Source: Polaromonas sp. | GTDB taxonomy: Bacteria; Pseudomonadota; Gammaproteobacteria; Burkholderiales; Burkholderiaceae_C | Length of the DNA: 32,000 nt | Direction of reading: 5' to 3' | Assembly: GCF_029945895.1 (NCBI RefSeq) | Contig: NZ_JAQSDL010000029.1 | Location: 28,260 to 60,259 of the forward strand | Part shown: positions 14,806 to 29,906 of the stretch, one piece after another | Position numbering within the stretch: position 1 is the stretch's first letter | How the letters are laid out: each line of letters starts with the position of its first letter | Notes under the pieces: model-generated | Told to the model about the DNA's origin: nothing | The model's database searches: none | What the model saw: the letters and a program-made list of their open reading frames with translations, nothing else | Translations under genes and position numbers: made by a program

Positions 14806-17481
14806 ATGACCCAACCCAAAGCGAGATTTCGTTGGCCCCATTTCGCTGCGTCGTCCTCCCAGGCGGTAGTCGAGGGGGGCCCCCCTGACCTGACGACGGC
14901 CACGGTTGCGCGGCGGGCGATTGCGCCCTTGTCCATGCGTGATCGGATCGTGGCCATCGTTGCGCCGGCCGGCTATGGCAAGACGACATTGATGGGAGGA
15001 TGGTTTCGCGCTTGCAAAGACGCCGACCCCGTGTGGGTGGGGCTCGACGCTTCCTGGCGCGACCAGGTGTTCTTTGTGCGCTCTTTGTTGAATGCAGTCG
15101 GAGGTCCGTCGGAGCCTGTCGCGATGGGTGCCATCGACGCGACGGCGGCGGTCGAGAGCGGCTTGCTGGCGTTGTTGCAGGCCCTTGGCCAACGTCGTCG
15201 TCCCATGGTGCTGTTCTTCGACGATGTGCATGTGTTGCGTGGCAGCGAGAGCGCTCACACCCTGAGCCGTCTGTTGGTGGCGGCACCCGACTACTTGAGG
15301 TTCGTCGTTTGCGGCCGCGAAGGGATGGATTTCGATCTGGCCGTGCTGACCGCGCGCGGGCTGGTACGCTGGGTGACACAGCACGAGCTGAAGCTCGACG
15401 CGCAGGATGTGCGGGAACTGGTGCGGCGGCGCCGCCTGTCGGCCGGTGACGAAGAGGTTGAGCATATCGTCGGGATCACCGAGGGTTGGCCGGCATTGGT
15501 ACAGCTTGCCCTCGCCAGCGGCGAGGGCGTACAGGAGGCCGCCGGGGGCAGCAGTAACTTGCTAATGGACAGCTTCGTTTACGAGAGCTTCTTCAAGGGC
15601 CTCGCGCCGGCCCGACGGCAGGCGCTGTTCGTGATGGCCGCCATTGGCGACTTCACGCTGCCGCTGCTGGTCGCGCTCGATGCGCCCGAGGGGGCGGAGG
15701 CGATCGCCGAAGGCGAGCAACTGGGCATCGTGCAGCGTCGGGGACGCGTGGCTGGCGAGCCGTTCTACGCCTTGCATGCGCTGGTGGCGGAGCGCGCACT
15801 GACGCGATTGGCCGACATGGGGCTGAGGCCTGTGTTTGTGCGCATACTGCGAACGCGTTGTGCGCAATGGTGGCATGCCCGGGGCGAGGTCTACCGTGCG
15901 ATCCGCGTGGCCCTGGAAGGTGATGACGCAAGGCTGGCGTCGGCTTATCTGACCGGCTACGCGCGTCAACTGGTGCAGGGCGAGGGCCGGCACGAGACCT
16001 TCCTGGACCTGCTCGCGCAATTGGAATCACGCGGCGTGGAGCCAGACTGCGCGCTGATGTTGCAAGCGGTGTGGGCGCTGGTGTTTTTGCGCCGCTATGC
16101 CGAGGCGGCAGCGTGGCTGACGCGCATTGAGCGGGCTTGTGGCAAGGGACAATCAGCCGGCGTTCGCTTGATCCTGCATACGACCGTCCTTCAGCGCGGC
16201 GTGATCGCCGGCCTGCGTGATAACGAGGCCGATGCCGAGGTCTTTGTGCGCCGGTGGCTGGCAGGGCCACCCGATCCGGACCCATTCCACTATGGAGCCG
16301 CACAAACGGTGCTGGCCTATGCGCACAAATGCAATGGACGCTTCGCCGAGGCTGCCCAGTCCTTGCGCGAGGCGCAAGTGAAGTTCGAGGAGGCTCCTTC
16401 ACCTTACGGCCACATGTGGGTGCGGGTGATCTCGGCCGCCTCGCTGCTCAAGGCGGGGCGGCATCGTGATGCCCTGGCAGACAGCGCCTCGGCGCTGGCC
16501 GAAGAGCCAGCTTTCGCTCCCGGCGCCGCGGGCCTGGCGGCCATGCTGCGCGCGATCCGCGCGTTGCTGCTGTATGAACGCAACCAGTGCACTGACGCGA
16601 TGGTGGAAGTGGAAGCGGCACTGCCACTGCTGCCGCACCAGGGCATTGTCGATGCGATGGTCGCGGGCTACGTGGCGGCGTCACGTCTGCAGGCGGCGCG
16701 GGGCGACATATCCGGTGCGCTCGATGCGGCGGCGGAGGGCGAGCGCGTGGGACTGGCGCGCGGCTTCGTGCGCCTGCAGCTCACGATGGTGGCCGAACGT
16801 GCGCTGCTGCTGTTGCGCGCCGGCGACGTCGAGGCGGCGCGACAAATGGCCAACGATAATGGGTTGCTGCCGCAAGGACCGCAGACCAATCTGCACAGAG
16901 ACAAGGCCGAGCGCCTCTGGGCCCGCCTCGATCTCGCGCAGGGGCGGCCCGATCTCGCTCTGCAATGGGTCGATTCCGGCATCGCCAGGGCGCGACGCAG
17001 CCACCAGCAGCACAAGCTGGCCGAGTTGTTGATGCTGCGCTCACTGGCGTTGGTGCGAACAGGAGATGCCGAGGGTGGGCACGACGCGGTGATGGAAAGC
17101 CTTCGCATCGCGGCATCGAACGGCTACGTGCGCCTGTACCTTGACGAAGGCCCCGAGTTGGAGAGCCTTTTGCGCCGCGTGGCTGACAAGCCGCAGAGTC
17201 CCACGCCGGCGTTTTTATACGCGCGAACGCTGCTGCTTGCCGCGGGCGCTGCATCTGCACGTCAGGATGCGGCGCCCGCGGACCAGGAGCGACCAACCGA
17301 GCGCGAACTGCAGATCCTTCGCCTGCTGGCAGATGGCCTGTCCAATGGCGAAGTGGCGGGTCGGCTTGTGTTGACCGAGGGCACGGTGAAATGGCATCTT
17401 CACAACATCTACGCGAAGCTGGGCGTGAAAAATCGCACGGGTGCTTTGCGCGAAGCTCGCACTCGGGCCTGGCTAGTTTGA
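14806..17481 (+). CDS. Large ATP-binding LuxR-family regulator (MalT/AlkS-like, LAL class)
   Basis: Walker A GYGKTTL (14971-14988), long helical-repeat middle region, C-terminal LuxR HTH (ERELQILRLLADGLSNGEVAGRLVLTEGTVKWHLHNIYAKLGV). Confidence 0.88.
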   Translation: MTQPKARFRWPHFAASSSQAVVEGGPPDLTTATVARRAIAPLSMRDRIVAIVAPAGYGKTTLMGGWFRACKDADPVWVGLDASWRDQVFFVRSLLNAVGGPSEPVAMGAIDATAAVESGLLALLQALGQRRRPMVLFFDDVHVLRGSESAHTLSRLLVAAPDYLRFVVCGREGMDFDLAVLTARGLVRWVTQHELKLDAQDVRELVRRRRLSAGDEEVEHIVGITEGWPALVQLALASGEGVQEAAGGSSNLLMDSFVYESFFKGLAPARRQALFVMAAIGDFTLPLLVALDAPEGAEAIAEGEQLGIVQRRGRVAGEPFYALHALVAERALTRLADMGLRPVFVRILRTRCAQWWHARGEVYRAIRVALEGDDARLASAYLTGYARQLVQGEGRHETFLDLLAQLESRGVEPDCALMLQAVWALVFLRRYAEAAAWLTRIERACGKGQSAGVRLILHTTVLQRGVIAGLRDNEADAEVFVRRWLAGPPDPDPFHYGAAQTVLAYAHKCNGRFAEAAQSLREAQVKFEEAPSPYGHMWVRVISAASLLKAGRHRDALADSASALAEEPAFAPGAAGLAAMLRAIRALLLYERNQCTDAMVEVEAALPLLPHQGIVDAMVAGYVAASRLQAARGDISGALDAAAEGERVGLARGFVRLQLTMVAERALLLLRAGDVEAARQMANDNGLLPQGPQTNLHRDKAERLWARLDLAQGRPDLALQWVDSGIARARRSHQQHKLAELLMLRSLALVRTGDAEGGHDAVMESLRIAASNGYVRLYLDEGPELESLLRRVADKPQSPTPAFLYARTLLLAAGAASARQDAAPADQERPTERELQILRLLADGLSNGEVAGRLVLTEGTVKWHLHNIYAKLGVKNRTGALREARTRAWLV

Positions 17482-17529: not shown

Positions 17530-19170
17530 TTAGACCCCCGGCAGCCGGTGGTCCTTGAACTGCTCACGCAACTGGTTCTTCAGCATCTTGCCAGTGGCGC
17601 CGATGGGGATGGCCTCGACGAACACCACGTCGTCAGGCACCCACCAGGAGGCGACCTTGCCTTTGTAGTGTTCAATCAGCGCTTCGCGGGTGACCTCCGC
17701 GCCCGGCTTGCGCACTACCACCAGCAAGGGCCGTTCATCCCATTTCGGGTGCGGCACGGCGATGGCCGCTGCCATCGCCACCGCCGGGTGCGCCATGGCG
17801 ACGTTTTCCAGGTCGATCGAGCCGATCCACTCGCCGCCGGACTTGATCACGTCCTTGCTGCGATCCGTGATCTGCATGTAGCCGTCGGCGTCGATCGTGG
17901 CCACGTCGCCGGTGGGGAACCACTGCGCGCCGGTCGTGTCGCTCACCAGGGGTTTGGCGCCATCAGGGCCGAAGTAGCTCTGGACTACCCAAGGGCCACG
18001 CACCAGCAGATCGCCCGGCGTCTTGCCGTCCCAGGGGACGTCGGCCCCCTGCGGATCGACGATGCGCATGTCCACGCCGAACACGACCTTGCCTTGCTTG
18101 GCGAGCAGCGCATGCTGTTCGTCCAGTGGCAGGGACAGGTGTTTCTGCTTCAGCCGGCTGACCGTGCCCAGGGGCGACATCTCCGTCATGCCCCAGGCGT
18201 GGATGACTTCAATGCCATGGTTATCTTCAAAGGCTCGCATCATGCTTGGCGGCACGGCCGAGCCACCGATGATGGTGCGCTTCAAGGGGGCGAGGCTGAG
18301 CGCGTTCTGCTCGGCGTGCTGGAGCATGCCGAGCCAGATCGTGGGCACGCCGGCCGCAAACGACACCTGCTCGGTGGTAATCAGCTCGTGCAGCGACTTG
18401 CCGTCCAGCGCGGCCCCCGGCAGCACCAGCTTGGCGCCGACCATCGCGCAACTGTAGGGCAGGCCCCAGGCATTGGCGTGAAACATCGGCACCACCGGCA
18501 TCACGCAGTCGCGCGATGAGATGGAGATCGCGTCCGGCATGAGCGAGGCATAGGTGTGCAGCATCGTCGAGCGATGGCTGTAGAGAACGCCCTTGGGGTT
18601 GCCGGTGGTACCCGAGGTGTAGCACAGCGACGAGGCGGTGTTCTCGTCGAAAGTGGGCCATGCGAAGTCGGGCTTGTGCGCCGAGATCAGGTCTTCGTAG
18701 CACAGCAGATTGGACAACTTGCTCGCCGGCATCTTGTCCTTGTCGATCATCGCGACAAAGTGACGTACCGTCTTGCAGCGCCCCGCCACGGCCTCGACCA
18801 GGGGCAGGAAGGTCAGGTCAAAGAACAGCACCTGATCCTCGGCATGGTCGAGGATGTAGAGCAACTGGTCCGGGTGCAGGCGCGGGTTGAGGGTGTGCAG
18901 CACCGAACCGCTGCCGGAGGCGGCGAAATACAGTTCCAGGTGCCGGTAGCCGTTCCAGGCCAGCGTGGCGACGCGCTGCGAAGCTTTCACACCGAGATTG
19001 CCGAGCGCATGGGCCATCTGGCGCGCGCGGTCGTGCAATTGCGCATAGGTGATGCGGTGGATGTCGCCTTCGACGCGGCGCGAGACGATGGGCACATCGC
19101 CGCTATGGCGTGCCGCATGGGTGATGAGTGAGGAAATGAGCAGGGGGGCGCTCATCATTTGACCGTTCAT
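17530..19170 (-). CDS. Medium/long-chain fatty-acid--CoA ligase (AlkK-like)
   Basis: AAGGAG RBS precedes ATG 19170. [39 protein letters not shown]. Last gene of the minus-strand ALDH-GMC-ligase operon. Confidence 0.88.
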
Positions 19171-19279
19171 GAAGTCTCCTTGGATTTTTTGGTTAAGGCT
19201 AAATCCGGCCACTGGCCGGGTATCGTGATGAGAGGTGCCATAGCGCCTCTGCGGGGTGGTGACTTTTATGCGAATGAAT

Positions 19280-20878
19280 CTACTGAAGTTTGTGGCTTGA
19301 CAGGATGGCCCGCGCACACTTCTCGCCGATCACCATGCAAGGGGCATTGGTGTTGCCGCCGATAACCGTAGGCATGATCGATGCGTCGGCGACACGCAGG
19401 CCCGAAAGCCCGTGCACCCGCAACTGCGCATCGACCACGGCCATGTCGTCATTGCCCATCTTGCAACTGCCGACCGGGTGGTAAATGGTTTCCGCACTGC
19501 GCCGGATGTAGGCCCGCAGATCCTTGTCGCTGCGCACGCCGGCACCCGGCGCCACTTCGCCGCCATTGATGTCGTGGAAGGCCTTGGCCTCAAAGATGCG
19601 TCGTGCAAGTTTCAGGCCACGCAGCATCTCGTCCCAGTCGTCGGCATGGCTCAGGTAGTTGGGCTGAATCATCGGTGCGGCCAGCGGATCGGCGCTTTTG
19701 AGGCCGATGAAACCACGGCTTTGGGGGCGCAACTGGCACATGTGCAAGGTGGCGCCGTAGCCGGGGGCCAGGTCACGGCCATGGTTTCGCAGGTAGGTCG
19801 GCAGGAAGTGAAATTGCACCTCTGGCAGCGCCGATTGTGGCGAGAGCCTGGCGAAACCCCCTGTCTCGGCCACGTTGCTGGACAGGAAGCCTTCGCGCTT
19901 GCGCCAGTATTGCCAGAGCCCGGCAAGTGCTTTCGGCAGGAAACCAGGCGCGACACCAATCGCCTGCTTGCTGCGGTCGCGGATCATCACCGTCACGTCG
20001 AGATGGTCCTGCAGGTTCTGGCCCACGCCCTGCAGGTCGGCGACCAGGTCGATGCCCAGGCCCGTCAATTGCTGCCTGGGTCCGACACCCGACAGCAGCA
20101 GCAGCTGCGGTGAATTGATGGCGCCGCCGCTCAGCACGATTTCACGTTCGGCCTCGATGCGCTGGCGTTCGCCTTTGCGTTCGATCTCGACCCCCACGGC
20201 CTGTTTGCCCGAGAAGAGGATGCGTGTGACATGGGCACCGGTGAGCACGGTCAGGTTCGGCCGGTCCATGACAGGGTGCAGGAAGGCCCGAGCGCTGCTC
20301 CAGCGTTCCCCGTTCTTCTGGGTCACCTGGTGAGGCCCCGCACCTTCCTGTTGCGCGCCGTTGAAGTCCATGTTGCGCGGAATGCCGCATTGCACGGCGG
20401 CGTCGATGAAGCGGCTCGACAACGGGTTGGGCGAGCGTACATCGGCAACGTTCAGTGGTCCATTTGTTCTGTGGTAGGTCGAGACACCGCGCTCGTTATT
20501 CTCATGTTCCATAAAGATCGGCAGCAGATCCTTGTAGGCCCATCCGGCGTTTCCCGCTGCTGCCCATGCGTCGTAATCAGCCTGTTGCCCGCGCATGTAG
20601 ACCATGGCATTGATCGAGCTGCTACCCCCGATTGTTTTTCCCCGTGGCCAGTACAGGCGACGACCTTCGAGTTCGGCTTGTGGTTCGGTGTCGAAATACC
20701 AGTTGTACTTGCGGGTGGCGAGCAAGCCCACGAGGCCCATGGGCGTGCGGATCAGCGGTGAGTCGTCGGACCGTCCCGCTTCGAGCAGGCACACGCGGTT
20801 CGACGGATCCGCGCTCAATCGGTTGGCCAAGACACAGCCGGCCGAACCGGCGCCCACGATGATGTAATCGAATTTCAA
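19280..20878 (-). CDS. GMC-family FAD oxidoreductase (AlkJ / choline-dehydrogenase-like alcohol dehydrogenase)
   Basis: N-terminal FAD fold FDYIIVGAGSAGCVLANRLS, GMC signature GGSSSINAMVYMRG, C-terminal HPVGSCKMG. Confidence 0.9.
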   Translation of the reverse strand: MKFDYIIVGAGSAGCVLANRLSADPSNRVCLLEAGRSDDSPLIRTPMGLVGLLATRKYNWYFDTEPQAELEGRRLYWPRGKTIGGSSSINAMVYMRGQQADYDAWAAAGNAGWAYKDLLPIFMEHENNERGVSTYHRTNGPLNVADVRSPNPLSSRFIDAAVQCGIPRNMDFNGAQQEGAGPHQVTQKNGERWSSARAFLHPVMDRPNLTVLTGAHVTRILFSGKQAVGVEIERKGERQRIEAEREIVLSGGAINSPQLLLLSGVGPRQQLTGLGIDLVADLQGVGQNLQDHLDVTVMIRDRSKQAIGVAPGFLPKALAGLWQYWRKREGFLSSNVAETGGFARLSPQSALPEVQFHFLPTYLRNHGRDLAPGYGATLHMCQLRPQSRGFIGLKSADPLAAPMIQPNYLSHADDWDEMLRGLKLARRIFEAKAFHDINGGEVAPGAGVRSDKDLRAYIRRSAETIYHPVGSCKMGNDDMAVVDAQLRVHGLSGLRVADASIMPTVIGGNTNAPCMVIGEKCARAILSSHKLQ

Positions 20879-20944
20879 GATTTGTCCCTATGCGATTCAG
20901 AGAAAAAAGAAATGCACCAGGCTAGCTCGGTGCAACCGAGGCCA

Positions 20945-22396
20945 TCAGACCAGACGCAGCGTCCAGTTGATCAGCCGTCGCGACAGATGGGTGTAGGGCG
21001 GGTAGAAGGTGGAGGCCAGCAACAGCCAGGTCTTGACGACCGCGCGCTCATGGCTGAAGGCCTTGAACCCGTAGATCCCGTGTGCGCTGCCCAAGCCGGA
21101 GTTGTTGACACCGCCAAAGGGCAGGCGGCCATGCAGGAACTGCACGACGCTGTGGTTGACGCAGGCACCGCCCGAACTCGTCTCGCGCAGCACCTTGTCG
21201 GCGACCTTGTGGTTCTTCGTCCAGATGTACAGCGCGAGCGGCTTGGGCTGGTCGTTGATCTTGGTTATGACTTCGTCGAGATCGCGGTAAGCAATGACGG
21301 GCAGCAACGGGCCGAAAATTTCCTCCTGCATGATCTTTGCATCCGGGCTGACGTTGTCGATCAAGGAGGGCGCGACGAACTGGCGATCTGTCTGGTGCTG
21401 GCCACCGGCCAGCAGTCTGGCACCTTTTTCAAGTGCGTCATCCAGCAGTCCGACGATGCGCTTGGCATGGCGCTCATTGACGATGTGCGCCAGGTGAGGG
21501 CTGGTGCGCACGGCATCTCCTTCACCGTAGGCTTTGGCCAGGGCTTGGCGGCAGTGCTCTACAAAAACATCCTTGACCGATTCGTGGACGTAGACGTGAT
21601 CCGGCGCAATACAGGTCTGGCCGCTGTTGGTGCATTTGGACCACATCAGGTTGGCCGCCGCGGCCTTCAGGTCCGCCGTGGCGTCAACGATGGTGGGGCT
21701 CTTGCCGCCCAGCTCCAGGGTCACGCTGGTCAGGTGCTTGGCCGCCGCGGCCATCACCACGCGGCCAATCGCCGGCGAGCCGGTAAAGAAGATGTGATCG
21801 AAGGGCAGATCCAGCAGCGCCTGCGAGACCGACGCGTCGCCCTGGAACAGGGCCACCTCGTCTTCGGGAAACACCTCGCGCACGATCTCCGCCATCAGCG
21901 CCGACAGGTGGGGTGTCATCTCCGAGGGTTTGAGAATGGCCGTGTTGCCGGCGGCGATGGCCGAGATCAGTGGGCCGAAGGTCAGGTTGACGGGATAGTT
22001 CCACGGCGAGATGATCAGGCAGCGGCCCTTGGGCTCGCACTGCACGTAGCTTGACGTGCCAAACATCAGCAGGGTCGGGAAAACCTTGTTCGGCTTCATC
22101 CAGCGGCGCAGATGGCGACGCGCATCGTTGGCTTCGGCCACGATGGGTAAAATTTCGGTCAGGTCGACCTCGGCGGCCGGTTTGCCGAAGTCCAGTGCGC
22201 CAGCGCGCTGAATGTCGGCCTGGCGCGCCAGGACGGCCCGCTTCAGGCGGTCGATCTTGTCGAGCCGCTGCGCGGCGGTTGATTGACGAAGCCGTAAGGC
22301 CGTCTCACGCTGCGCGGCGAAGATGCGGTCTATTTCCGGTTGTCCCGCCGGTTCGTCGGGGTTGACAAGCCGCATGGCATTGGAAGTCACCTTCAT
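20945..22396 (-). CDS. Aldehyde dehydrogenase, class-3/AlkH/CalB-like
   Basis: AGGAGA RBS precedes ATG 22396. Catalytic motifs ELGGKSP and NSGQTCIAPDHVYV. Confidence 0.88.
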   Translation of the reverse strand: MKVTSNAMRLVNPDEPAGQPEIDRIFAAQRETALRLRQSTAAQRLDKIDRLKRAVLARQADIQRAGALDFGKPAAEVDLTEILPIVAEANDARRHLRRWMKPNKVFPTLLMFGTSSYVQCEPKGRCLIISPWNYPVNLTFGPLISAIAAGNTAILKPSEMTPHLSALMAEIVREVFPEDEVALFQGDASVSQALLDLPFDHIFFTGSPAIGRVVMAAAAKHLTSVTLELGGKSPTIVDATADLKAAAANLMWSKCTNSGQTCIAPDHVYVHESVKDVFVEHCRQALAKAYGEGDAVRTSPHLAHIVNERHAKRIVGLLDDALEKGARLLAGGQHQTDRQFVAPSLIDNVSPDAKIMQEEIFGPLLPVIAYRDLDEVITKINDQPKPLALYIWTKNHKVADKVLRETSSGGACVNHSVVQFLHGRLPFGGVNNSGLGSAHGIYGFKAFSHERAVVKTWLLLASTFYPPYTHLSRRLINWTLRLV

Positions 22397-22481
22397 TTCT
22401 GTCTCCTGCATTTTATTTTGGTCTCGTATCACGTCGATTCGAGGTCGAAGTAAGTCTATTGAGATGCGCCATGGAAATCAC

Positions 22482-22497
22482 CCTAACGAAAGTTAGG
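22482..22497. promoter_or_regulatory. Perfect palindrome CCTAAC-GAAA-GTTAGG in the divergent control region
   Basis: Read directly from the sequence. Sits between the ALDH start (22396) and the pmoC start. Candidate operator or RNA hairpin. Confidence 0.25.
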
Positions 22498-22536
22498 TGC
22501 AACGTCGTGTGCTTCGATCTACCATTCTTCGAGTGT

Positions 22537-22551
22537 TGGCGCAAAGCTGGC
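22537..22551 (+). promoter_or_regulatory. Sigma-54-like -24/-12 element TGGCGC-N5-TGGC upstream of pmoC
   Basis: Matches TGGCAC-N5-TTGC at the GG/GC core with correct spacing and 2 flanking mismatches. No enhancer-binding protein gene in the window, so this is weak. Confidence 0.2.
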
Positions 22552-22598
22552 CGAGCCTCTTTCTTGCAAGTGGGTGGAGGCTAAGTGATTACCCTTAA

Positions 22599-22616
22599 TT
22601 CACACGATTCACACGA
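22599..22616 (+). repeat. Tandem direct repeat TTCACACGA x2 abutting the pmoC ribosome-binding site
   Basis: Two exact 9-nt copies, followed directly by AGGAGA (22618-22623). Confidence 0.6.
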
Positions 22617-22630
22617 CAGGAGACATGACA

Positions 22631-23440
22631 ATGAAAACAGTTTCAATTCAAGGTGCCGGGGGCATGCGGGTAGCCGGCGGCGAGGGAAAATCCTCCCGGG
22701 AGAAAATAGGTGCTCCGTGGGCCAAATTCTTTTTGGCGCTGCTTGCGTTCGCGGTGCTCTATACCGGCTATCGCATCTACTCCGAGGCGTCGGCGTTCAC
22801 ATACGGGCTCGACTATTTCAGCCACGAGTTCGATGTTTACTGGATGCGTCTGCTGTACGGACAGTTGCTGCTGATTGGCGCGCTGGGAACCGGGGCTCTG
22901 GTGTATCTATGGCGTACCCGTGAGCGGGATTTTTCCCGGATCGGGCCACGAGAGGAGGTGCGGCGCCTGTTCGTGCTGATGGCGCTCATTTTGCTGTTCG
23001 CCATCATGTTTTATGTGACCGGTTCGATCTACACGGAGGCCGATGCAGCCTGGCACCAGGTGACGATCCGGGATACTGATTTCACCCCCACCCACATTGG
23101 TCTGTTTTATTTCTGCGTGCCCTTGCTGGTGTTTTGGGGCTTCATCTCGTTCGCCTACGCTCACACGCGCATCCCGCTCTTTGGCAATCGCATTTCGCTG
23201 CCGTTCGCGATCATCGTCGCCGGCGCTTTCATGATCATGCCCAATGTGGGATTCAACGAGTGGGGTCACACTTTCTTCTATGCAGAGGAGTTGTTCGCCG
23301 CGCCGATTCACTATGGCTTTGTGTTGCTGGGCTGGTCTACGTTTGCGGCTGGTGGATTGCTCCTGCAGATACTGGGTCGCGTGGCCGAGCTGACGAAGCA
23401 GTCGGTGTCGCCGCAAGCCGAGCTTCAAGCGGCTCACTGA
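22631..23440 (+). CDS. pmoC: Copper membrane monooxygenase subunit C (PmoC/AmoC family)
   Basis: EADAAWHQVTIRDTDFTPTH and NEWGHTFFYAEELFAAPIHYGF reproduce PmoC metal-ligand spacing (D-x3-H-x12-H and N-x3-H-x13-H). Multi-TM protein. ATG 22631 is 7 nt after AGGAGA; ATG 22625 is an alternative. Confidence 0.92.
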   Translation: MKTVSIQGAGGMRVAGGEGKSSREKIGAPWAKFFLALLAFAVLYTGYRIYSEASAFTYGLDYFSHEFDVYWMRLLYGQLLLIGALGTGALVYLWRTRERDFSRIGPREEVRRLFVLMALILLFAIMFYVTGSIYTEADAAWHQVTIRDTDFTPTHIGLFYFCVPLLVFWGFISFAYAHTRIPLFGNRISLPFAIIVAGAFMIMPNVGFNEWGHTFFYAEELFAAPIHYGFVLLGWSTFAAGGLLLQILGRVAELTKQSVSPQAELQAAH

Positions 23441-23526
23441 TACGCCTTTCCGGGTAAATGCATCGGGGCTAGGTCTCGATGACAAGCTGTGCGCTTGACC
23501 TCCCAATTTATTTCTGGAGACTTTGA

Positions 23527-24279
23527 ATGTCCGTTTTGACTCCGGCTGAGGCCGCCTTTAGCCCGCAGGAAGCGGCCCGCGTTGATGCCCAGGTTGACTG
23601 GGTGGTCATTCCGCTCTTTGTGGTGCTTCTGGGGTCCGTATTCGCCTTCCAGTTTGCCTTGCTGGTGGGGGACTGGGATTACTGGATCGATTGGCGGGAC
23701 CGCCGTTATTGGCCGCTGGTCACGCCCTTGGTGCTGGTTATTCTGCCCGGCGTATTTGGATATGCCTTTTGGCATTTGCTGCGCATACCTCTGGGTGCGA
23801 CGCTGAGCATTATCGGGTTGACGCTGACGGGCTGGTTGAGCCGGTACTTGAACTTTCATGAGTTCGCGGGTTTTCCGATGAACATGGTGCTGCCGTCGAC
23901 TTTCATTGGCGTGGGTCTACTGATCGATTGCACCTTGCTGCTTACGCGCAGCTGGTTTTTCACGGGGATTTTTGCTGGCTTTCTTTCGGGGCTGCTTCTG
24001 TACCCAATGAACTGGCCACTGCTGGCTCCGTTCATGGTGCCGGTCGAAATGCACGGCACGCTGATGACGGTGGCGGACGTGATGGGTTTTGAGTACATCC
24101 GCACTGCCATGCCCGAATATGTGCGCATCATCGAGCAGAGTACTTTGAGGACATTCGGCGATGCAGTCACACCGCTGACGGCGGTTTTTGCTGGCTTCCT
24201 GACCATATTGAGCCTCTGGTTCTGGGCCTGGGTTGGCTCACTCGGTGTCAAGGCCGTGTGGCTGCGAAAAGTTGTTTAA
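23527..24279 (+). CDS. pmoA: Copper membrane monooxygenase subunit A (PmoA/AmoA family)
   Basis: Hallmark strings GDWDYWIDWRDRRYWP, PMNMVLPSTFIG, YIRTAMPEYVRIIEQSTLRTFGD. GGAGA RBS. Confidence 0.93.
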   Translation: MSVLTPAEAAFSPQEAARVDAQVDWVVIPLFVVLLGSVFAFQFALLVGDWDYWIDWRDRRYWPLVTPLVLVILPGVFGYAFWHLLRIPLGATLSIIGLTLTGWLSRYLNFHEFAGFPMNMVLPSTFIGVGLLIDCTLLLTRSWFFTGIFAGFLSGLLLYPMNWPLLAPFMVPVEMHGTLMTVADVMGFEYIRTAMPEYVRIIEQSTLRTFGDAVTPLTAVFAGFLTILSLWFWAWVGSLGVKAVWLRKVV

Positions 24280-24289
24280 GGAAGAGGTC

Positions 24290-25531
24290 ATGAATTTCAT
24301 TGCAAAATTGTTCGCAGTCATTCAAGGCCTGATCGTCGTCCTGGTCACGTTTTCGGCAACGCCGACGTATGCCCATGGTGAAAAGGCTCAGCAACCCGCT
24401 TTGCGCATGCGCACCGTGCATTGGTTTGACGTGGATTTGTCGACGCGCAAGCTCGATGTCAACCAGATTCTGGTCGTCAAGGGAACTTTTGTTCCTTCCC
24501 TGTCCTGGCCGGAGCATGTCGCGTCCATCGAGGACACCGCCTATCTCAATGTGGGCGTACCCGGGCCTTCTTTTGTGCGCCTGGACAGCCGCGTCAACGG
24601 TGTGCCCACCATACGCAGTAGTTCGTATAAGCGCGGTGAGCAGTACAACTTCGAGATCACGCTGAAGGCCCGCACACCCGGCCGCTATCACCTGCATCCC
24701 ATCATCAACGTCCAGGATGCCGGGCCGATGATTGGGCCCGGCATCTGGGTCGAGGTCGGGGGCGACCCGGCGGCATTTGACAACAGCATCAAAACCTTGT
24801 TCGGCCAAACCCTTGATTTGGAAACGCACGGCTTTGCCAATGCGGCTTCCTGGTCAGCGGTGTGGGTTGTGCTTGGTTTGGTCTGGTTTGGCTATTGGCT
24901 GACCAAGGTGCCTTTGATCTTGCCGAGGTTCCGGCGTGCCAGCGCGCTGGGTGAGAACGCCGACGACATGATCACCACGCGCGACCGTCAGGCGGCACTG
25001 GTTATCCTGGTGGCTACGCTGATGCTTATCGCTGGCGGGTTTTTCTATGCCACCGAGCGCTGGCCGGTCACGACGCCGCTACAGACCGGCAAGATCAAGA
25101 CGCCGCCCCTGAAGATGGCGCCTTCGCCGGTGTTGGTCACGATGGATGATGCACGCTACCGCATCCCGGGCCGGAGCTTCCGTATCGAGCTCACGGTAAC
25201 CAACAGCGGGAAGAGTCCCGTGAGCGTTGGTGAGTTTGCCTCAGGCGGCCTGCGCTTTATCAATTCCGCGGTGCTGAAGGTCACACCAAAAGACCAGGAC
25301 GATCTGGTCGCGACAGACGCGTTGCGCGTGGAGGGCGGCTCGATCAATCCAGGAGAAACGAAGAAGATCGTGGTCTATGCGGACGATGCGATGTGGGAGA
25401 CGCAGCGCATGACGACGATGATCTCCTCCCCGGATGCGGTGGTGGCCGGCATGCTGTTCTTCTTCGATGCGCAGGGCCGTCGCTATCCAGTAGAGATCAG
25501 CGGACCGATGATCCCTTTGTTCGGGGGGTAA
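24290..25531 (+). CDS. pmoB: Copper membrane monooxygenase subunit B (PmoB/AmoB family)
   Basis: Signal peptide ending TYA|HGEKAQQPALRMRTVHWFD (N-terminal His after cleavage), GRYHLHPIINV HxH motif, two central TM helices, C-terminal cupredoxin-like domain. Confidence 0.92.
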   Translation: MNFIAKLFAVIQGLIVVLVTFSATPTYAHGEKAQQPALRMRTVHWFDVDLSTRKLDVNQILVVKGTFVPSLSWPEHVASIEDTAYLNVGVPGPSFVRLDSRVNGVPTIRSSSYKRGEQYNFEITLKARTPGRYHLHPIINVQDAGPMIGPGIWVEVGGDPAAFDNSIKTLFGQTLDLETHGFANAASWSAVWVVLGLVWFGYWLTKVPLILPRFRRASALGENADDMITTRDRQAALVILVATLMLIAGGFFYATERWPVTTPLQTGKIKTPPLKMAPSPVLVTMDDARYRIPGRSFRIELTVTNSGKSPVSVGEFASGGLRFINSAVLKVTPKDQDDLVATDALRVEGGSINPGETKKIVVYADDAMWETQRMTTMISSPDAVVAGMLFFFDAQGRRYPVEISGPMIPLFGG

Positions 25532-26142
25532 TGGAGATGCGACTGATCCGAACGTTGAGTTCCGCGCTGCTGGCCGTGGCTGCGGTATCGGCATGGGCCC
25601 ATGGCGGGGTCGGCATTGAAGACGACAAGTGCATCCTGCGCATCGGCAGCGACCGGGCCCATTTCGCCGGCTACCAGCCCGAGCACCGTGCCAGTCAGGA
25701 GTTCTGCGAGGACATCCCCGAAGTCGGACGGGCAGTGATCGTGATTGACTTCATCCAGCCCGCGCTGCGCGAACGCGTGGTCGAGTTCCGCATCCTGCGT
25801 GACGCGGACGGGCTGGGTGCCAAGGCGCGCTACGAGGATCTTGGTGACACGGACCAAATCGCGCAGCGGACGATGGTGGCGCTGCCGGCCAAGGTTTATC
25901 CGCGCGGCACGGTCACCCTGGACCACAAGTTCAGCGAGCCCGGCTGGTACATCGGCCTGCTCAGCGCGACCGACCCGGCCAGCGGGAAGACGGAGACCTC
26001 GGTCTTTCCGTTCCGCGTCGGCGTGCGCAACTATTGGAAATACCTGCCATTGCCCTTGTTCTTTATCGGCATGGCCTGGCTCTTGTACCGGCTTACCAGA
26101 CAGCGGCGAAAACCCCCGATCACCGACGTACCTCAAAAGTAG
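25531..26142 (+). CDS. Exported, C-terminally membrane-anchored protein coupled to pmoB (candidate PmoD/AmoD-like accessory protein)
   Basis: ATG overlaps the pmoB stop (TAATG). Signal peptide ...AVSAWA|HGG. About 150-aa periplasmic domain with C34/H44/H52/C59. TM helix YLPLPLFFIGMAWLLY followed by RQRRK. Family assignment not verified. Confidence 0.7.
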   Translation: MEMRLIRTLSSALLAVAAVSAWAHGGVGIEDDKCILRIGSDRAHFAGYQPEHRASQEFCEDIPEVGRAVIVIDFIQPALRERVVEFRILRDADGLGAKARYEDLGDTDQIAQRTMVALPAKVYPRGTVTLDHKFSEPGWYIGLLSATDPASGKTETSVFPFRVGVRNYWKYLPLPLFFIGMAWLLYRLTRQRRKPPITDVPQK

Positions 26143-26165
26143 ACAGCATGAAAAAAGGAGACAAG

Positions 26166-28331
26166 ATGAAAATTTGGATGAACATGGCGGGTAACGCGCG
26201 TCAAGAAAAAACCGCCAACCGACCTGCAATGGCCCTGACATTGGCGGTGGTTTCGCTGCTGGTGATGGCCGCGCCGCCCGTCATGGCCGAGGAGGCCAAG
26301 GGCTCGAAGGCGCACATTGCGGCCGTGACCAGGAAAGTCGACGGCGCCTTCATCCGTGCCAATGAGGCGCGAACGAACGACTGGCCCAGCCACGGCCTGG
26401 ACTATGCCGAGACCCGCTTCAGCAAGCTCCAGCAGATCCATACCGCCAACGTCAAGGATCTCGGCTTGGTCTGGTCCTACAACCTCGAGTCGACGCGCGG
26501 CGTCGAGGCCACGCCGCTGGTGGTGGACGGCGTCATGTATGTCAGCGCCTCCTGGAGCATCGTCCATGCCATTGACGTGCGCAGCGGCAAGAAGATCTGG
26601 ACCTTCGATCCCAAGGTGCCGCGCGAGGCCGCTTACAAGGGCTGCTGTGACGTGGTCAACCGCGGCGTGGCGCTGTATCAGGGCAAGGTCTTCGTCGCCT
26701 CCTACGACGGCCGGCTGATCGCGCTCGATGCGGCCACCGGCAACAAGGTCTGGGAAAAAGACACCATCATCGACCGCAAGTTCAGCTACACGATCACCGG
26801 GGCGCCACGCGTGTTCAAGGGCAAGGTGATCATCGGCAACGGCGGCGCCGAGTACGGCGTGCGCGGCTACATCACGGCCTATGATGCCGCCACCGGCGAC
26901 CAGAAATGGCGCTGGTTCACGGTACCCGGCGACCCGAGCAAACCGTTCGAGGACGAGTCCATGGCCAAGGCCGCCAAGACCTGGGACCCCGCGGGCAAGT
27001 ACTGGGAAGCCGGCGGTGGTGGCACCGCCTGGGACACGCTGACCTTCGATCCCAAACTGAACCTGATGTACGTGGGCGTCGGCAACGGTTCACCCTGGGC
27101 GGCAGCCAAGCGCAGCCCCGCGGGCGGCGATAACCTGTACCTGGGGTCCATCGTCGCGCTCAACCCCGACACCGGCAAGTACGTCTGGCACTACCAGGAA
27201 ACACCCGGCGACAACTGGGACTACACCTCGACCCAGCCGATGATCCTGGCCGACCTGAAGATAGCGGGCAAGCCACGCAAGGTGATCCTGCATGCGCCGA
27301 AGAACGGTTTCTTCTTCGTGATCGACCGCACCAACGGCAAGTTCATCTCGGCGAAGAACTTCGTCGACGTGAACTGGGCCAGCGGCTACGACGCGACGGG
27401 TCGCCCCATCGAGACTGCCGATGCGCGTCCCACGGATCGACCGTACGATGCCATTCCAGGCCCCTACGGCGCGCACAACTGGCACTCCATGTCGTTCAAT
27501 CCACGGACCGGGCTGGTCTACTTGCCTGCGCAAAACATACCCGTCAACATGATGGATGACAAGAACTGGAGCTTCAACTCCAACAAGCCAGGTCAGCCAG
27601 GCTCCGGTACCGGTTGGAATACCGGCAATTACATCAATGCAGTCCCACCAAAAAGCAAGCCGTTTGGCCGACTGATTGCCTGGGATCCGGTACAGCAAAA
27701 AGAAGCATGGCGCCAGGAACAGGTCTCACCGTGGAATGGTGGCACGCTGACCACGGCCGGTAACCTCGTGTTTCAGGGCACGGCGGACGGGCGTTTCATC
27801 GCCTACAACGCCCAAAATGGCGAGAAACTCTGGGAGTCGCCCACGGGGACCGGCGTGGTGGCTGCGCCTATCACCTATCTGGTGGATGGCAAGCAGTACG
27901 TGTCGATTGCCGTGGGATGGGGCGGCAGTTACGGTCAGGATAAGCGGGCCACCGAGCGGCAAGGTCCGGGCACGGTCTACACCTTTGCCGTTGGCGGCAA
28001 AGCGCCCATGCCGGACTTCGTCGCTTACCGGATGGGCGAACTGGTGGCAGGGGTGAAATACGACCCGGCTCACTACGAGGCCGGCACCTTGCTGTATGTC
28101 AGCAATTGCGTTCTCTGCCATGGTGTTCCCGGCGTGGACCGTGGCGGCAACATCCCCAACCTCGGTTACATGAACGCGGCCTTCATCGAAAACCTCGACA
28201 AGTTCATCTTCAAAGGTCCCGCCATGAGCCGGGGCATGCCTGACTTCACGGGCAAGCTGAGCGTGGACGATGTGGAGAAGATCAAGGCCTTCATCCAGGG
28301 AACGGCAGACGCGATACGTCCCAAGAAATGA
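26166..28331 (+). CDS. Quinohemoprotein PQQ-dependent alcohol dehydrogenase (type II ADH with C-terminal cytochrome c)
   Basis: AAGGAG RBS 5 nt before ATG 26166. Signal peptide, vicinal disulfide GCCDVVNRG, propeller W-motifs, WDYT active-site segment, heme motif CVLCH (28107-28121). Starts at most 23 nt after the preceding stop. Confidence 0.9.
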   Translation: MKIWMNMAGNARQEKTANRPAMALTLAVVSLLVMAAPPVMAEEAKGSKAHIAAVTRKVDGAFIRANEARTNDWPSHGLDYAETRFSKLQQIHTANVKDLGLVWSYNLESTRGVEATPLVVDGVMYVSASWSIVHAIDVRSGKKIWTFDPKVPREAAYKGCCDVVNRGVALYQGKVFVASYDGRLIALDAATGNKVWEKDTIIDRKFSYTITGAPRVFKGKVIIGNGGAEYGVRGYITAYDAATGDQKWRWFTVPGDPSKPFEDESMAKAAKTWDPAGKYWEAGGGGTAWDTLTFDPKLNLMYVGVGNGSPWAAAKRSPAGGDNLYLGSIVALNPDTGKYVWHYQETPGDNWDYTSTQPMILADLKIAGKPRKVILHAPKNGFFFVIDRTNGKFISAKNFVDVNWASGYDATGRPIETADARPTDRPYDAIPGPYGAHNWHSMSFNPRTGLVYLPAQNIPVNMMDDKNWSFNSNKPGQPGSGTGWNTGNYINAVPPKSKPFGRLIAWDPVQQKEAWRQEQVSPWNGGTLTTAGNLVFQGTADGRFIAYNAQNGEKLWESPTGTGVVAAPITYLVDGKQYVSIAVGWGGSYGQDKRATERQGPGTVYTFAVGGKAPMPDFVAYRMGELVAGVKYDPAHYEAGTLLYVSNCVLCHGVPGVDRGGNIPNLGYMNAAFIENLDKFIFKGPAMSRGMPDFTGKLSVDDVEKIKAFIQGTADAIRPKK

Positions 28332-28477
28332 CCGATATATGACCGATGGCGCGAAGGAGTGCGCCGGGGAGTTGTGCGCGGCTGCCTGCCGTGCAGCCGG
28401 CGACGGGCCGACGGTTCTTGCAGGGCTTCGCGCCCGGTCGGCCAGATTCTATGGCTTACGGATATGAGGAAAAAACC

Positions 28478-28951
28478 ATGCAATCGAAAAAAGTTTCCGC
28501 TGTCTGTATCGCGGTCCTGATGGGTGCGCTGGCGGGACCCGTCGCCTTGGCGACCGAGCACGCGCACGCCGCATCCAAGAGCGGCGCGGCGAAGGACATG
28601 AAGGTACTGCCGCCGCTGCGCATCGTGTCGCCGCTTGCCGGGGCGCAGGTCGGGCCCAACATTGAGGTCGAGTTCGAGACCGATGCGGAGCTGGCGAACA
28701 TGACGATGAGCGCCAAGTCCATTGGCGTTCATCTGCATGTCGGTATCGACGGTACGTCTCTGATGCCGATGATGGCGGACTTGGTCCGCGTGGGCAAGAA
28801 TCGTTACCGCTACGCCTTTGACCTGCCCGCAGCCCCTGGGCCGCGCGTCATTAGCGTGTACTGGTCCGATGCATCCCACAAGACCATCGAATTTTCGGTA
28901 CAGAAGGTGAGTGTGGTGGTCGTTTCGAATCAGGGTAAGGTCAAACCTTGA
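28478..28951 (+). CDS. Exported His/Met-rich protein (DUF4399-like; candidate periplasmic copper binder)
   Basis: Signal peptide ...PVALA|TEHAHAAS. LRIVSPLAGAQVGPNIEVEF...IGVHLHVGIDGTSLMPMM resembles the DUF4399 pattern from memory. Function unproven. Confidence 0.65.
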   Translation: MQSKKVSAVCIAVLMGALAGPVALATEHAHAASKSGAAKDMKVLPPLRIVSPLAGAQVGPNIEVEFETDAELANMTMSAKSIGVHLHVGIDGTSLMPMMADLVRVGKNRYRYAFDLPAAPGPRVISVYWSDASHKTIEFSVQKVSVVVVSNQGKVKP

Positions 28952-28998
28952 ACGTACAGTCAAGTCGTCCTTGATGCCAATGAATAGAAGTGCAAGCA

Positions 28999-29015
28999 GC
29001 TATTGAAGTAATAGC
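28999..29015. promoter_or_regulatory. Inverted repeat GCTATT-N5-AATAGC upstream of the DUF2147/copCD genes
   Basis: Read from the sequence, about 50 bp upstream of ATG 29068 in an AT-richer spacer. Confidence 0.15.
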
Positions 29016-29067
29016 ATCATCGGCCCATGAAGTCGTTGCTCGCCTACCCACAACGAAGGAAAGTCTC

Positions 29068-29523
29068 ATGACAATCGGAAAGACATTGAAACACGTACTC
29101 GCCATCGCCTCCTTTGCCTGGGCAGCCGGTCCTGCTTTTGCGCAGGACACGCCCGTCGGGCTCTGGAAGACGATTGACGACGACGGCAAGACGGTGAAAA
29201 CCTTGATTCGCATCAGCGAATCGGCTGGCGTGCTCAGTGGCGTGATCGAGAAACTCCTCGATCCCAAGGCGGCGACCGTCTGCACGAAATGCACCGACGA
29301 CCGCAAGGACAAGCCGGTGGTCGGGATGACGATTATTCGCGGCATCAAACACAATACCGCTGACGCTGCGCTGTGGGACGGCGGCGAGGTGCTCGATCCG
29401 GAGAATGGGTCGACCTACCGGCTGCGTCTGCGGCCCGCCGACGGGGGCAAGAAACTCGAGGTTCGAGGTTTCATCGGCGTGCCGATGATAGGGCGCTCGC
29501 AAACCTGGGTGCGCGCCGAGTGA
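29068..29523 (+). CDS. DUF2147 domain exported protein
   Basis: Signal peptide ...GPAFA|QDTPVGLWKTIDDDGK, CTKC pair, KDKPVVGM, W-GG-VLDPENGSTY, LEVRGF...GRSQTWVR. This is the typical DUF2147 layout. Confidence 0.8.
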   Translation: MTIGKTLKHVLAIASFAWAAGPAFAQDTPVGLWKTIDDDGKTVKTLIRISESAGVLSGVIEKLLDPKAATVCTKCTDDRKDKPVVGMTIIRGIKHNTADAALWDGGEVLDPENGSTYRLRLRPADGGKKLEVRGFIGVPMIGRSQTWVRAE

Positions 29524-29537
29524 ACGCCCGGCGCAAG

Positions 29538-29906
29538 ATGGTTTCGTGGCTCGTCGCGCTGCTGGCCATGGCCGCCACTGGCACGGCGCTGGCGCATGCC
29601 GCGCTGGTCAAGTCCGAACCGGCACGGCGGGCGACGCTGTCCAAACCGCCGCCGCAGGTCAGGCTGTGGTTCAACGAGCGGCTGGAGCCCGAGTACGCGA
29701 CGATCAGCGTGATCAGGGAAGGTGCCGGCCCGGTCACGACCCAGAAGGCCCGGGTTGACAAGGACGACCCCAAACTGCTGGCGCTGGAATTGCCCATGCT
29801 CAGCCCGGGTACCTATACCGTGAAATACCGGGTGCTCTCGGTCGATGGCCATACGGTCGATTACGGTTATACCTTCACCGTGAAGGCCGAGGGCGCCGGG
29901 AAGTAA
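29538..29906 (+). CDS. copC: CopC periplasmic copper-binding protein, Cu(II)-site-only type
   Basis: Signal peptide ...GTALA|HAALVKSEP (mature N-terminal His), D-x-H (SVDGHTV) near the C-terminus, no Met-rich Cu(I) loop. Confidence 0.88.
   Translation: MVSWLVALLAMAATGTALAHAALVKSEPARRATLSKPPPQVRLWFNERLEPEYATISVIREGAGPVTTQKARVDKDDPKLLALELPMLSPGTYTVKYRVLSVDGHTVDYGYTFTVKAEGAGK

Follow-up and report, generated by a model that had tools for sequence, protein, structure and literature searches.

A copper monooxygenase locus of Polaromonas lying divergent from an AlkH/AlkJ-type dehydrogenase module

How might a bacterium that hydroxylates a hydrocarbon with a copper-dependent membrane monooxygenase (CuMMO) carry the product on to acyl-CoA? 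Functional knowledge of CuMMOs comes almost entirely from methanotrophs and nitrifiers, and the hydrocarbon members of the family are poorly understood, with few regulators, reductants or downstream pathways assigned to them. The question is raised by a 32,000-nt stretch of DNA from Polaromonas sp. (contig NZ_JAQSDL010000029.1, positions 28,260 to 60,259; hereafter the window), in which a pmoCAB operon lies back to back with genes for an aldehyde dehydrogenase (ALDH), a GMC flavoprotein alcohol dehydrogenase and an acyl-CoA ligase. From gene families and gene order we propose, as the likely function of this locus, a self-contained pathway for the terminal oxidation of n-alkanes, most probably of short to medium chain length.

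The module divergent from pmoC and its copper monooxygenase

An original prediction, made from the letters of the sequence, had likened the three divergent genes to alkH, alkJ and alkK of the Pseudomonas putida alk operon and had supposed that a copper enzyme took the place of the di-iron hydroxylase AlkB. Its inventory of the module stands: in a gene map built from the open reading frame (ORF) listing and profile scans (Pfam, NCBIfam), the ALDH, GMC and ligase genes are all present with full-length, high-scoring domain matches, and they follow one another in the alkH-alkJ-alkK order on the minus strand with gaps of 66 and 109 bp (Table 1; coordinates are window positions). The prediction that genes exist for each step from hydrocarbon to acyl-CoA, including two alcohol-oxidizing enzymes, is likewise borne out, as all could be assigned to families and motif inspection found the active-site signatures complete in every enzyme of the locus. 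Two predicted starts lay too early: the ligase has 546 residues rather than 595, and the pyrroloquinoline quinone-dependent alcohol dehydrogenase (PQQ-ADH) begins at 26166 rather than at 26034. The named genes were correct, while pmoD and the copper-handling block at 28346-32000 had been overlooked. The predicted lack of alkB, rubredoxin and alkL agrees with our tblastn searches (E<=1), which gave no window match for alkB (query from plasmid pCP7-41), rubredoxin, rubredoxin reductase, OmpW/alkL, CYP153 or the ferredoxin reductase (FdR) and ferredoxin (Fdx) that go with it; for the rubredoxins AlkF/AlkG and the reductase AlkT only trivial 20-residue matches (E 0.3) appeared, and no such Pfam domain occurs among the window ORFs.

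Table 1. Features of the locus, with positions in the 32,000-nt window
Feature	Position	Strand	Basis
MalT/LuxR-type STAND regulator (AAA_16, TPR_MalT and GerE helix-turn-helix domains)	14806-17481	+	Pfam TPR_MalT 119 bits, GerE 59 bits
Acyl-CoA ligase, AlkK/DmdB family, 546 aa; third gene of the ALDH-GMC-ligase unit	17530-19170	-	AMP-binding domains, TSGTTGNPK motif
AlkJ-like GMC flavoprotein alcohol dehydrogenase, 532 aa; second gene of the unit	19280-20878	-	GMC_oxred_N, GMC_oxred_C; GxGxxG and HPVGSCKMG motifs
AlkH-like class-3 ALDH, 483 aa; first gene of the unit	20945-22396	-	Aldedh 348 bits; ELGGK and GQTC motifs
21-nt imperfect palindrome CACCCTAACGAAAGTTAGGTG, candidate operator	22479-22499	+	Conservation in the divergent promoter region
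pmoC/xmoC, CuMMO subunit C	22625-23440	+	AmoC 246 bits
pmoA/xmoA, CuMMO subunit A	23527-24279	+	AMO 256 bits
pmoB/xmoB, CuMMO subunit B, 413 aa	24290-25531	+	Monooxygenase_B 413 bits
pmoD/xmoD, 201 aa, periplasmic cupredoxin-like, with signal peptide and C-terminal transmembrane helix	25537-26142	+	PDB 6cpd PmoD, E=1.3e-19
Type II quinohemoprotein PQQ-ADH, 721 aa, with signal peptide and C-terminal haem c (CVLCH)	26166-28331	+	TIGR03075 682 against cutoff 480
Small secreted protein, no family; probable start M36 or M45	28346-28951	+	Signal-peptide-like N-terminus; same position in sister loci
DUF2147 periplasmic protein	29068-29523	+	PF09917 100 bits; conserved in sister loci
CopC periplasmic copper-binding protein	29538-29906	+	PF04234 84 bits
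CopD-cytochrome c-thioredoxin-like (AhpC/TSA) fusion, 697 aa	29907-32000	+	Pfam CopD, Cytochrom_C, AhpC-TSA; CVSCH motif

How close are the two dehydrogenases to those of known alk systems? Four alk operons served as references, those of Pseudomonas sp. 7-41 (pCP7-41, NZ_CP089552), Marinobacter NP-4 (NZ_CP034143), Phaeobacter G2 (CP104101) and Sphingopyxis (pSfKp5.2, NZ_CP009123); the first of these consists of alkB, two rubredoxin genes, alkH, alkJ, alkK and OmpW/alkL, with a divergent LuxR gene. The window ALDH is 50-56% identical to the four AlkH proteins as against 29% to E. coli BetB, and the GMC enzyme is 53-56% identical to the four AlkJ proteins as against 42% to E. coli BetA; canonical AlkH, AlkJ and AlkK share 61-77% identity among themselves. 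The top PDB matches of the ALDH are the class-3 enzymes 6k0z, 4qgk and 1ad3. Among plasmid-borne matches outside Polaromonas, the ALDH finds one Burkholderia ALDH (56%, in an unrelated context) and then six alkH genes before identity drops to 45%, while the top GMC matches inspected (H2, H4, H5 and H8) are alkJ genes inside alkB operons. These alkH and alkJ matches sit in operons of the form alkB-rubredoxin-alkH-alkJ-alkK-alkL, and the NCBIfam score patterns of the window proteins match those of canonical AlkH, AlkJ and AlkK. In the ALDH tree (like all trees here, neighbour-joining with 200 bootstraps), the ALDHs that neighbour CuMMOs form a clade (85%), which groups with the AlkH genes in 80% of replicates. 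By these comparisons the ALDH and the GMC enzyme are of AlkH/AlkJ type, as predicted, and the canonical proteins and their window counterparts are best described as sister lineages. Membrane association and quinone reduction, as in AlkJ, are predicted for the GMC enzyme. The ligase shares 52-54% identity with AlkK, whose top NCBIfam model (PRK07008, 798 bits) is also its own, and 92% with the ligase on a plasmid of Polaromonas sp. JS666.

The dehydrogenase pair could also be taken for BetA/BetB, which convert choline to glycine betaine, as ‘choline dehydrogenase’ is the name given by PGAP and JGI annotation to the JS666 copy and to other homologues, and the subfamily model PRK02106, from which that name derives, is passed by the window GMC. 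However, canonical AlkJ receives the same PRK02106 label, and on the betA equivalog TIGR01810 the window GMC scores only 554 against a cutoff of 732. On models for betaine aldehyde dehydrogenase the ALDH, a class-3 enzyme, scores about 215 where the cutoffs are about 600, and betI and betT do not occur in the window. Grouping with BetA/BetB had been named beforehand as an outcome that would speak against an alk-type module; it was checked, and on equivalog scores, identities and gene context we reject a role in choline catabolism as extremely improbable.

The monooxygenase itself is encoded in C-A-B order, each subunit matching its own family model. H29, H134 and H136 of PmoB are invariant in our PmoB alignment (A1), and the D..H..H and N..H..H motifs of PmoC align with those of a solved particulate methane monooxygenase (pMMO; 3rfr chain C). 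From pMMO structures we take the N-terminal histidine and HxH motif of PmoB and the D/H/H and N/H/H sets of PmoC to be metal ligands. The enzyme belongs to the CuMMO family, and copper-dependent hydrocarbon hydroxylation is predicted for it. The nearest named relatives of PmoB outside Burkholderiales belong to Nevskiales (59-67%). PmoD follows pmoB in almost all related loci, its C-terminal helix being conserved in Nevskiales, where a copC-copD pair comes after pmoD. In the window, the CopD-cytochrome c-thioredoxin-like fusion stops exactly at position 32000. The small secreted protein encoded ahead of DUF2147 has no Pfam or NCBIfam match; cleavage after ...PVALA would leave a mature N-terminus T-E-H-A-H, an X-X-His arrangement resembling an amino-terminal copper- and nickel-binding (ATCUN) motif, and with copper genes as neighbours the protein may be a periplasmic copper binder.

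Is an alkane the substrate? CuMMOs are promiscuous, a verrucomicrobial homologue oxidizes acetone (PMC8630023), and in NCBIfam the window subunits lie nearest the bacterial Amo models, AmoB scoring above its cutoff. The enzyme might accordingly act on ammonia, methane, alkenes such as ethene or ketones such as acetone, the dehydrogenases handling some other product or having an unrelated role. However, AmoA and AmoC fall below their equivalog cutoffs, and the window encodes no hydroxylamine oxidoreductase, no methanol dehydrogenase (MDH) or XoxF, no epoxide or coenzyme M pathway and no acetone-related gene. All neighbouring genes fit the sequence from primary alcohol through aldehyde and acid to acyl-CoA, and in JS666 the same scaffold works with a bona fide alkane omega-hydroxylase, as described below. 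We therefore regard a substrate other than an alkane as unlikely and keep n-alkane oxidation as our reading of the locus.

Recurrence of the arrangement and a shared 21-nt element

The original prediction called for a search for the same divergent arrangement in other genomes, and this found it in Polaromonas, Rhodoferax, Hydrogenophaga, Acidovorax and many metagenome contigs. Scanning species-representative genomes with the PmoB alignment yielded a nearly identical locus in Polaromonas eurypsychrophila AER18D-145 (97.7-99.2% nucleotide identity to the window, PmoB 100%), a cultured isolate from uranium tailings whose genome announcement is silent on these genes (PMC9022503). An identical PmoA is indexed in 100 blocks of a public assembly collection. 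All eight places shown for it, one of them a groundwater metagenome, have the arrangement, as do six species-level Comamonadaceae genomes (GTDB), and this recurrence argues that the arrangement is no chance juxtaposition.

How far does it extend? Our survey took in 73 genome loci that have a related PmoB gene. Among them, the divergent ALDH-GMC-ligase unit is complete only in Comamonadaceae whose PmoB identity is at least 83%, namely in Polaromonas, Rhodoferax and metagenome-assembled genomes (MAGs) of Hydrogenophaga and Acidovorax, and neither the complete unit nor an interposed PQQ-ADH was found in any of the 60+ non-Comamonadaceae loci examined. Parts of the unit reach further. Several Nevskiales have an ALDH of the same lineage (~60%) right upstream of pmoC and in divergent orientation, the same GMC lineage (65-75%) is found within a few kb of the CuMMO in Sinimarinibacterium, Oceanococcus and Aquabacterium, and overall ALDH and/or GMC orthologues (60-80%) flank related CuMMOs of Nevskiales, Aquabacterium and two metagenome loci, L093 and L094 (JGI metagenomes 3300056623 and 3300056625; PmoB 75%). 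The tie between these ALDH and GMC lineages and this CuMMO clade is thus old. In L093/L094 the copper operon comprises pmoCABD, an unknown gene, DUF2147, copC and copD but no PQQ-ADH; ALDH-GMC-OmpW lies divergent from pmo with no ligase between, and the ligase stands nearby in a unit of its own with a MalT homologue. The positions of PQQ-ADH and ligase are therefore lineage-specific, and the comparison indicates that both were added, or kept, in particular lineages.

Two further loci deserve mention as observations in their own right. A Burkholderiaceae MAG (L081, CAZZVB010000128.1) has a much more distant CuMMO (PmoB 38%) whose neighbours are OmpW, a regulator of LysR type, a CopD-cytochrome c fusion and a ligase resembling AlkK (53%), an arrangement that may be an independent joining of a CuMMO with alk-like accessory genes. 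A Glaciimonas MAG (L096, 7199-11074) carries OmpW-GMC-ALDH, with the same GMC lineage (64%), among housekeeping genes and with no hydroxylase nearby; the alcohol/aldehyde module thus exists in stand-alone form too.

What could hold the two divergent units together? The large regulator whose gene converges on the ligase gene had been assigned to the AlkS class. A MalT/LuxR-type regulator is indeed adjacent, but its likeness to AlkS is one of architecture and similar size, with 22% identity over the full length (E 1e-21); on the MalT model it reaches 178 bits, under the cutoff of 537. The copy on the JS666 plasmid, cut short by IS6, shares 91% identity with it, and homologues of 52-53% identity lie directly upstream of pmoC in two Burkholderiales MAGs (L018 and L019). 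The claim that alkL is missing needs a similar refinement. It is true of the window, but an OmpW protein 30-33% identical to AlkL follows the ligase directly in loci L001, L004, L005, L007 and L014-L016, which gives the order H-J-K-L.

The imperfect palindrome CACCCTAACGAAAGTTAGGTG lies between the two units and upstream of both, at a distance of 83 nt from the ALDH start and 146 nt from pmoC. The element is exact in 14 Comamonadaceae CuMMO loci (L001-L008, L012-L016 and L091) and has two mismatches in L017 and one in the JS666 plasmid (L009, 13371-13391). With two mismatches it also stands between the malT homologue and pmoC in L018 (7664) and L019 (8250), whose PmoB is 68% identical to that of the window and where the flanks of the element cannot be aligned. 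In L093/L094 a 19-mer, CCGAACGAAAGTTAGGTGC, occurs twice in the same orientation (L094 7410 and 16161), again within unalignable flanks: one copy is ~105 nt upstream of pmoC and the other ~135 nt upstream of the relocated ligase-malT unit. The window holds one copy of the element, where 0.24 would be expected at up to three mismatches. We infer that CACCCTAACGAAAGTTAGGTG is a candidate operator of the MalT-type activator, which would link hydroxylase, dehydrogenases and ligase as one regulon. In an RNA hairpin of pmoC sense, closed by a GAAA loop, the two variant positions of the element would be G-U wobbles, so that operator and leader hairpin are both possible. A known RNA element in the pmoC leader was considered and rejected: Rfam has no family match anywhere in the window, and the pmoC leader folds no better than shuffled sequence (z -1.47), which favours a DNA operator over a leader RNA.

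The region upstream of pmoC (22527-22624) and the 5' end of the gene exist as two alleles among strains that are otherwise 90-96% identical. One allele, shared by the window, L012, L016 and L017, contains the direct repeat TTCACACGATTCACACGA, and the other is that of L014, L015 and JS666 (L013 was also compared); between these strains PmoC is only 83-95% identical while PmoA is 97-100% identical. L012 has in addition ~116 extra bp between pmoC and pmoA.

The JS666 plasmid and the exchange of hydroxylases

A natural counterpart to the window is found on the plasmid of Polaromonas sp. JS666 (NC_007950.1, L009), which carries the same scaffold with protein identities of 94% (ALDH), 91% (GMC), 92% (ligase), 87% (PQQ-ADH) and 91% (regulator). 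Its regulator is truncated by IS6 and the locus is flanked by IS6 copies; a far-side flank of a thioesterase and two short-chain dehydrogenases/reductases (SDR) is common to both. In place of pmoCABD, the unknown protein, DUF2147 and copCD, JS666 has a CYP153-FdR-Fdx cassette of P450, FAD-dependent reductase and 2Fe-2S ferredoxin. The P450 is the crystallized CYP153A of PDB 7ant (also 7ao7), with identical length and 965 bits, the next best match being CYP153A7; according to the title of Scheps et al. 2011 it is an omega-hydroxylase of medium-chain n-alkanes.

Which hydroxylase was there first? At the nucleotide level JS666 matches the window at 17535-22526 (89%) and at 26053-28368 (82%). Its ALDH/ADH intergenic region retains the 21-nt element, the pmoC leader with its ribosome-binding site and the first pmoC codons, in the allele found in Rhodoferax; directly after these come the final ~30 codons of pmoD, which are frameshifted by a 5-nt indel and have lost the stop codon. 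Three more fragments (70-84% identity) lie in the 660-bp spacer between ADH and P450 genes and correspond to the 3' end of copC, the junction of copC with copD and the 3' domain of the copD-cytochrome c gene. The remnants occupy 13046-13503 and 10440-10785 of L009. Distant PmoD homologues share the C-terminal helix, so that the JS666 fragment derives from a pmoD gene and not the reverse, and the pmoC, pmoD, copC and copD remnants together show that the JS666 locus goes back to one of CuMMO type. The opposite course, in which an ancestor resembling JS666 gained pmoCABD by insertion, was considered and is rejected on the same grounds, namely the non-coding fragments of all four genes in JS666 and the ancestral PmoD helix. 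JS666 thus lost pmoCABD and copCD by deletion and now uses CYP153, whose arrival may have come before or after the losses. Since the deletion, the old pmoC promoter faces the PQQ-ADH and CYP153 genes.

These remnants bear on two claims of the original prediction. Its replacement of a di-iron hydroxylase by a copper enzyme is right in that the hydroxylase slot is modular, but there is no sign that AlkB was ever at this locus, and the swap that is documented runs from CuMMO to CYP153, the reverse direction with respect to copper. The evidence supports an exchange of hydroxylases on a fixed downstream platform. The prediction also gave the pmoCAB operon its own PQQ-ADH. The enzyme itself is clear enough (PDB 1kb0, the quinohemoprotein ethanol dehydrogenase of Comamonas testosteroni, at 1257 bits; Cytochrome_CBB3 domain), but JS666 has it without pmo and the relatives with 75% PmoB identity have pmo without it, which places PQQ-ADH in the scaffold rather than in the pmo cassette.

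Proposed pathway, its rivals and its relation to known systems

From the observed gene content, families, synteny, remnants and motif conservation, the substrate, the electron routes, co-transcription and the pairing of regulator and operator would be as follows. XmoCAB would hydroxylate an n-alkane to the primary alcohol, assisted by PmoD and by the copper-supply block of CopC and CopD-cytochrome c. The alcohol could then take two routes, through the quinohemoprotein PQQ-ADH in the periplasm or through the AlkJ-like flavoprotein at the cytoplasmic face of the membrane, from which electrons would pass to the quinone pool. The AlkH-like ALDH would convert the aldehyde to the acid, and the AlkK/DmdB-family ligase would convert the acid to acyl-CoA for beta-oxidation. 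Both divergent units would be under one control region whose 21-nt element is presumably read by the adjacent MalT/LuxR-type activator, and the scaffold would serve as a platform for hydroxylase exchange, with CYP153-FdR-Fdx feeding the same downstream enzymes in JS666.

Several points weigh against this reading. The ligase exceeds the cutoff of the NCBIfam equivalog for 3-(methylthio)propionyl-CoA ligase (PRK07008/NF005426; 972, cutoff 822), and its nearest plasmid-borne relatives are betaproteobacterial ligases of 57-65% identity in unrelated contexts. In the GMC tree the nodes corresponding to those of the ALDH tree are weak (55-56% bootstrap), and GMC relatives of 60-67% identity also occur without any nearby hydroxylase, so CuMMO loci are not the only setting of this GMC lineage. 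Transcription as a single operon is not assured, since the gap between the ALDH and GMC genes holds a terminator-like hairpin with a T-run (20913-20934, minus strand); the hairpin could attenuate read-through, with the three genes perhaps expressed unequally. (Consensus promoter and terminator scans showed no enrichment above shuffles and were not used as evidence.) In many sister strains OmpW and an ABC transporter stand in place of the regulator, which is then not adjacent. Finally, known CuMMO substrates are mostly C1-C5 compounds as against the medium-chain alkanes of the JS666 CYP153, a mismatch that bears on the substrate range of the shared downstream enzymes.

The designation of the ligase as alkK can be kept in part. 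Its position and its membership in the AlkK/DmdB family stand, and by sequence it belongs to the same enzyme family as AlkK; specific orthology to AlkK is not supported, given the 57-65% identity to other ligases and 0% bootstrap for an exclusive clade of module ligases and AlkK. Its top PDB match is DmdB (6ihk, 692 bits). The context of a DmdB pathway is missing, as no GcvT-family DmdA occurs among the window ORFs scanned with Pfam, and the acyl-CoA dehydrogenase and enoyl-CoA hydratase genes lie ~12 kb and ~15 kb off in a separate gene block. As a separate observation, a DmdB-type ligase 59% identical to that of the window is found on a plasmid of Pseudomonas aeruginosa H15 (L089, NZ_CP093017.1) beside a flavin monooxygenase-like oxidoreductase, an alpha/beta hydrolase, a GMC enzyme and a coniferyl-type ALDH, a cluster that resembles a set for subterminal (Baeyer-Villiger) alkane or ketone oxidation.

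Might the three genes then be a general salvage module for fatty alcohols, aldehydes and acids, or for short acids of the DmdB type, that rides on a mobile catabolic island uncoupled from the CuMMO? The ligase score and the unrelated contexts of its plasmid relatives would suit this, as would the GMC-ALDH-OmpW sets without hydroxylase (L096) and the IS6 copies around the JS666 locus. Against it, the divergent ALDH/pmoC arrangement is kept from ~60% to 100% PmoB identity and across two orders, the control region with its conserved element is shared and stands also ahead of the relocated ligase, and JS666, after losing the CuMMO, has another alkane hydroxylase at the same locus. We consider an uncoupled salvage module quite unlikely and retain the alkane pathway.

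The block upstream of this locus is of a different kind. Two acyl-CoA dehydrogenase genes adjoin each other at 3427-5603, and at 13138-14768 a thiolase-like gene of SCP-x type precedes one for a ChsH2-like OB-fold/zinc-ribbon protein. Genes for an enoyl-CoA hydratase, a carbonic anhydrase and two further acyl-CoA ligases also belong to the block, as does the end of a biotin carboxylase gene. This content suggests the degradation of branched or side-chain acyl-CoAs.

How would the hydroxylase receive its electrons? In AlkB operons rubredoxin and a reductase are encoded alongside, and in the CYP153 cassette FdR and Fdx; no CuMMO reductase is encoded in the cluster, which fits a quinol-driven CuMMO and prompts the idea of a quinol loop. 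Here the AlkJ-like dehydrogenase would reduce ubiquinone and the quinol would be the reductant of the CuMMO, so that product alcohol primes the next hydroxylation and the AlkJ-like enzyme is more than a duplicate of PQQ-ADH. Tentatively, and with more doubt than confidence, we join this loop to a platform indifferent to the hydroxylase and constant in its regulatory wiring. Such a platform would consist of the 21-nt control region, the MalT-type activator, PQQ-ADH, the AlkH/AlkJ-like pair and the ligase, into which CuMMO or CYP153 could be plugged, the old pmoC promoter and leader driving the PQQ-ADH-CYP153 unit in JS666.

Among known systems, the alk system of P. putida GPo1 (alkBFGHJKL/alkST on the OCT plasmid) shares with the window the ALDH-GMC-ligase order, with OmpW next in sister loci, as well as a large regulator of the LuxR/MalT class and the alcohol-to-acyl-CoA logic. 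The window differs in having a copper hydroxylase instead of AlkB, rubredoxins and rubredoxin reductase; this hydroxylase does not head the operon but is transcribed divergently from it, a periplasmic PQQ-ADH is extra, the ligase has DmdB-type enzymes rather than AlkK as its nearer relatives and the regulator is only 22% identical to AlkS. With the CYP153 locus of JS666 it shares scaffold, flank and the control region with the 21-nt element, whereas the hydroxylase cassette differs. The C-A-B(-D) order of the window recurs in other hydrocarbon CuMMOs, among them emoCAB of Haliea, hmoCAB of Mycolicibacterium chubuense NBB4 and of Nocardioides CF8, and the xmoCABD-copCD loci of Nevskiales. The Nevskiales loci also have in common with the window copCD and often the same ALDH lineage divergent from pmoC, but the complete ALDH-GMC-ligase unit and the interposed PQQ-ADH are absent from those examined. 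The butane pathway of Thauera butanivorans uses a soluble di-iron hydroxylase and two PQQ-dependent 1-butanol dehydrogenases, BDH and BOH; periplasmic quinohemoprotein ADH and redundant alcohol routes are alike in both, and T. butanivorans is without an AlkJ-type flavoprotein module.

That Polaromonas and Rhodoferax which use alkanes have CuMMOs is already published: Rochman et al. 2020 (ISME J 14:714) is cited for novel CuMMOs (xmoCABD) in alkane-using Betaproteobacteria of these two genera; genera, enzyme family and inferred alkane role agree with ours, and the window very probably belongs to one of those lineages. A later paper lists these Polaromonas/Rhodoferax CuMMOs as of unknown function (PMC8630023). 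In the searchable literature nothing was found on xmoCABD in Polaromonas, and on CuMMO together with alkJ only a biosensor review, which makes no connection between the two; an earlier description of the neighbourhood is possible. What seems new, being found in no accessible text, is the link to an AlkH/AlkJ-like module, the descent of the JS666 CYP153 locus from a CuMMO locus and the shared cis-element.

What does the locus mean for the biology of these enzymes? It amounts to a complete pathway proposal, open to experimental test, for a CuMMO of Betaproteobacteria with a wide distribution in groundwater, and with P. eurypsychrophila AER18D-145 a cultured carrier strain is on hand, a tractable CuMMO model outside methanotrophs and nitrifiers. 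The window and JS666 form a natural experiment, since proteins they share (87-94% identical) stay constant while only the hydroxylase cassette differs, and the scars give the direction of change. CuMMO-associated regulatory systems have been called a neglected area in a review of hydrocarbon biosensors (PMC8784404), and the MalT-type activator and 21-nt element offer a candidate regulator-operator pair for short-alkane biosensors. If the quinol loop exists, it would be the alkane-oxidizer counterpart of the long-debated coupling between MDH and pMMO in methanotrophs.

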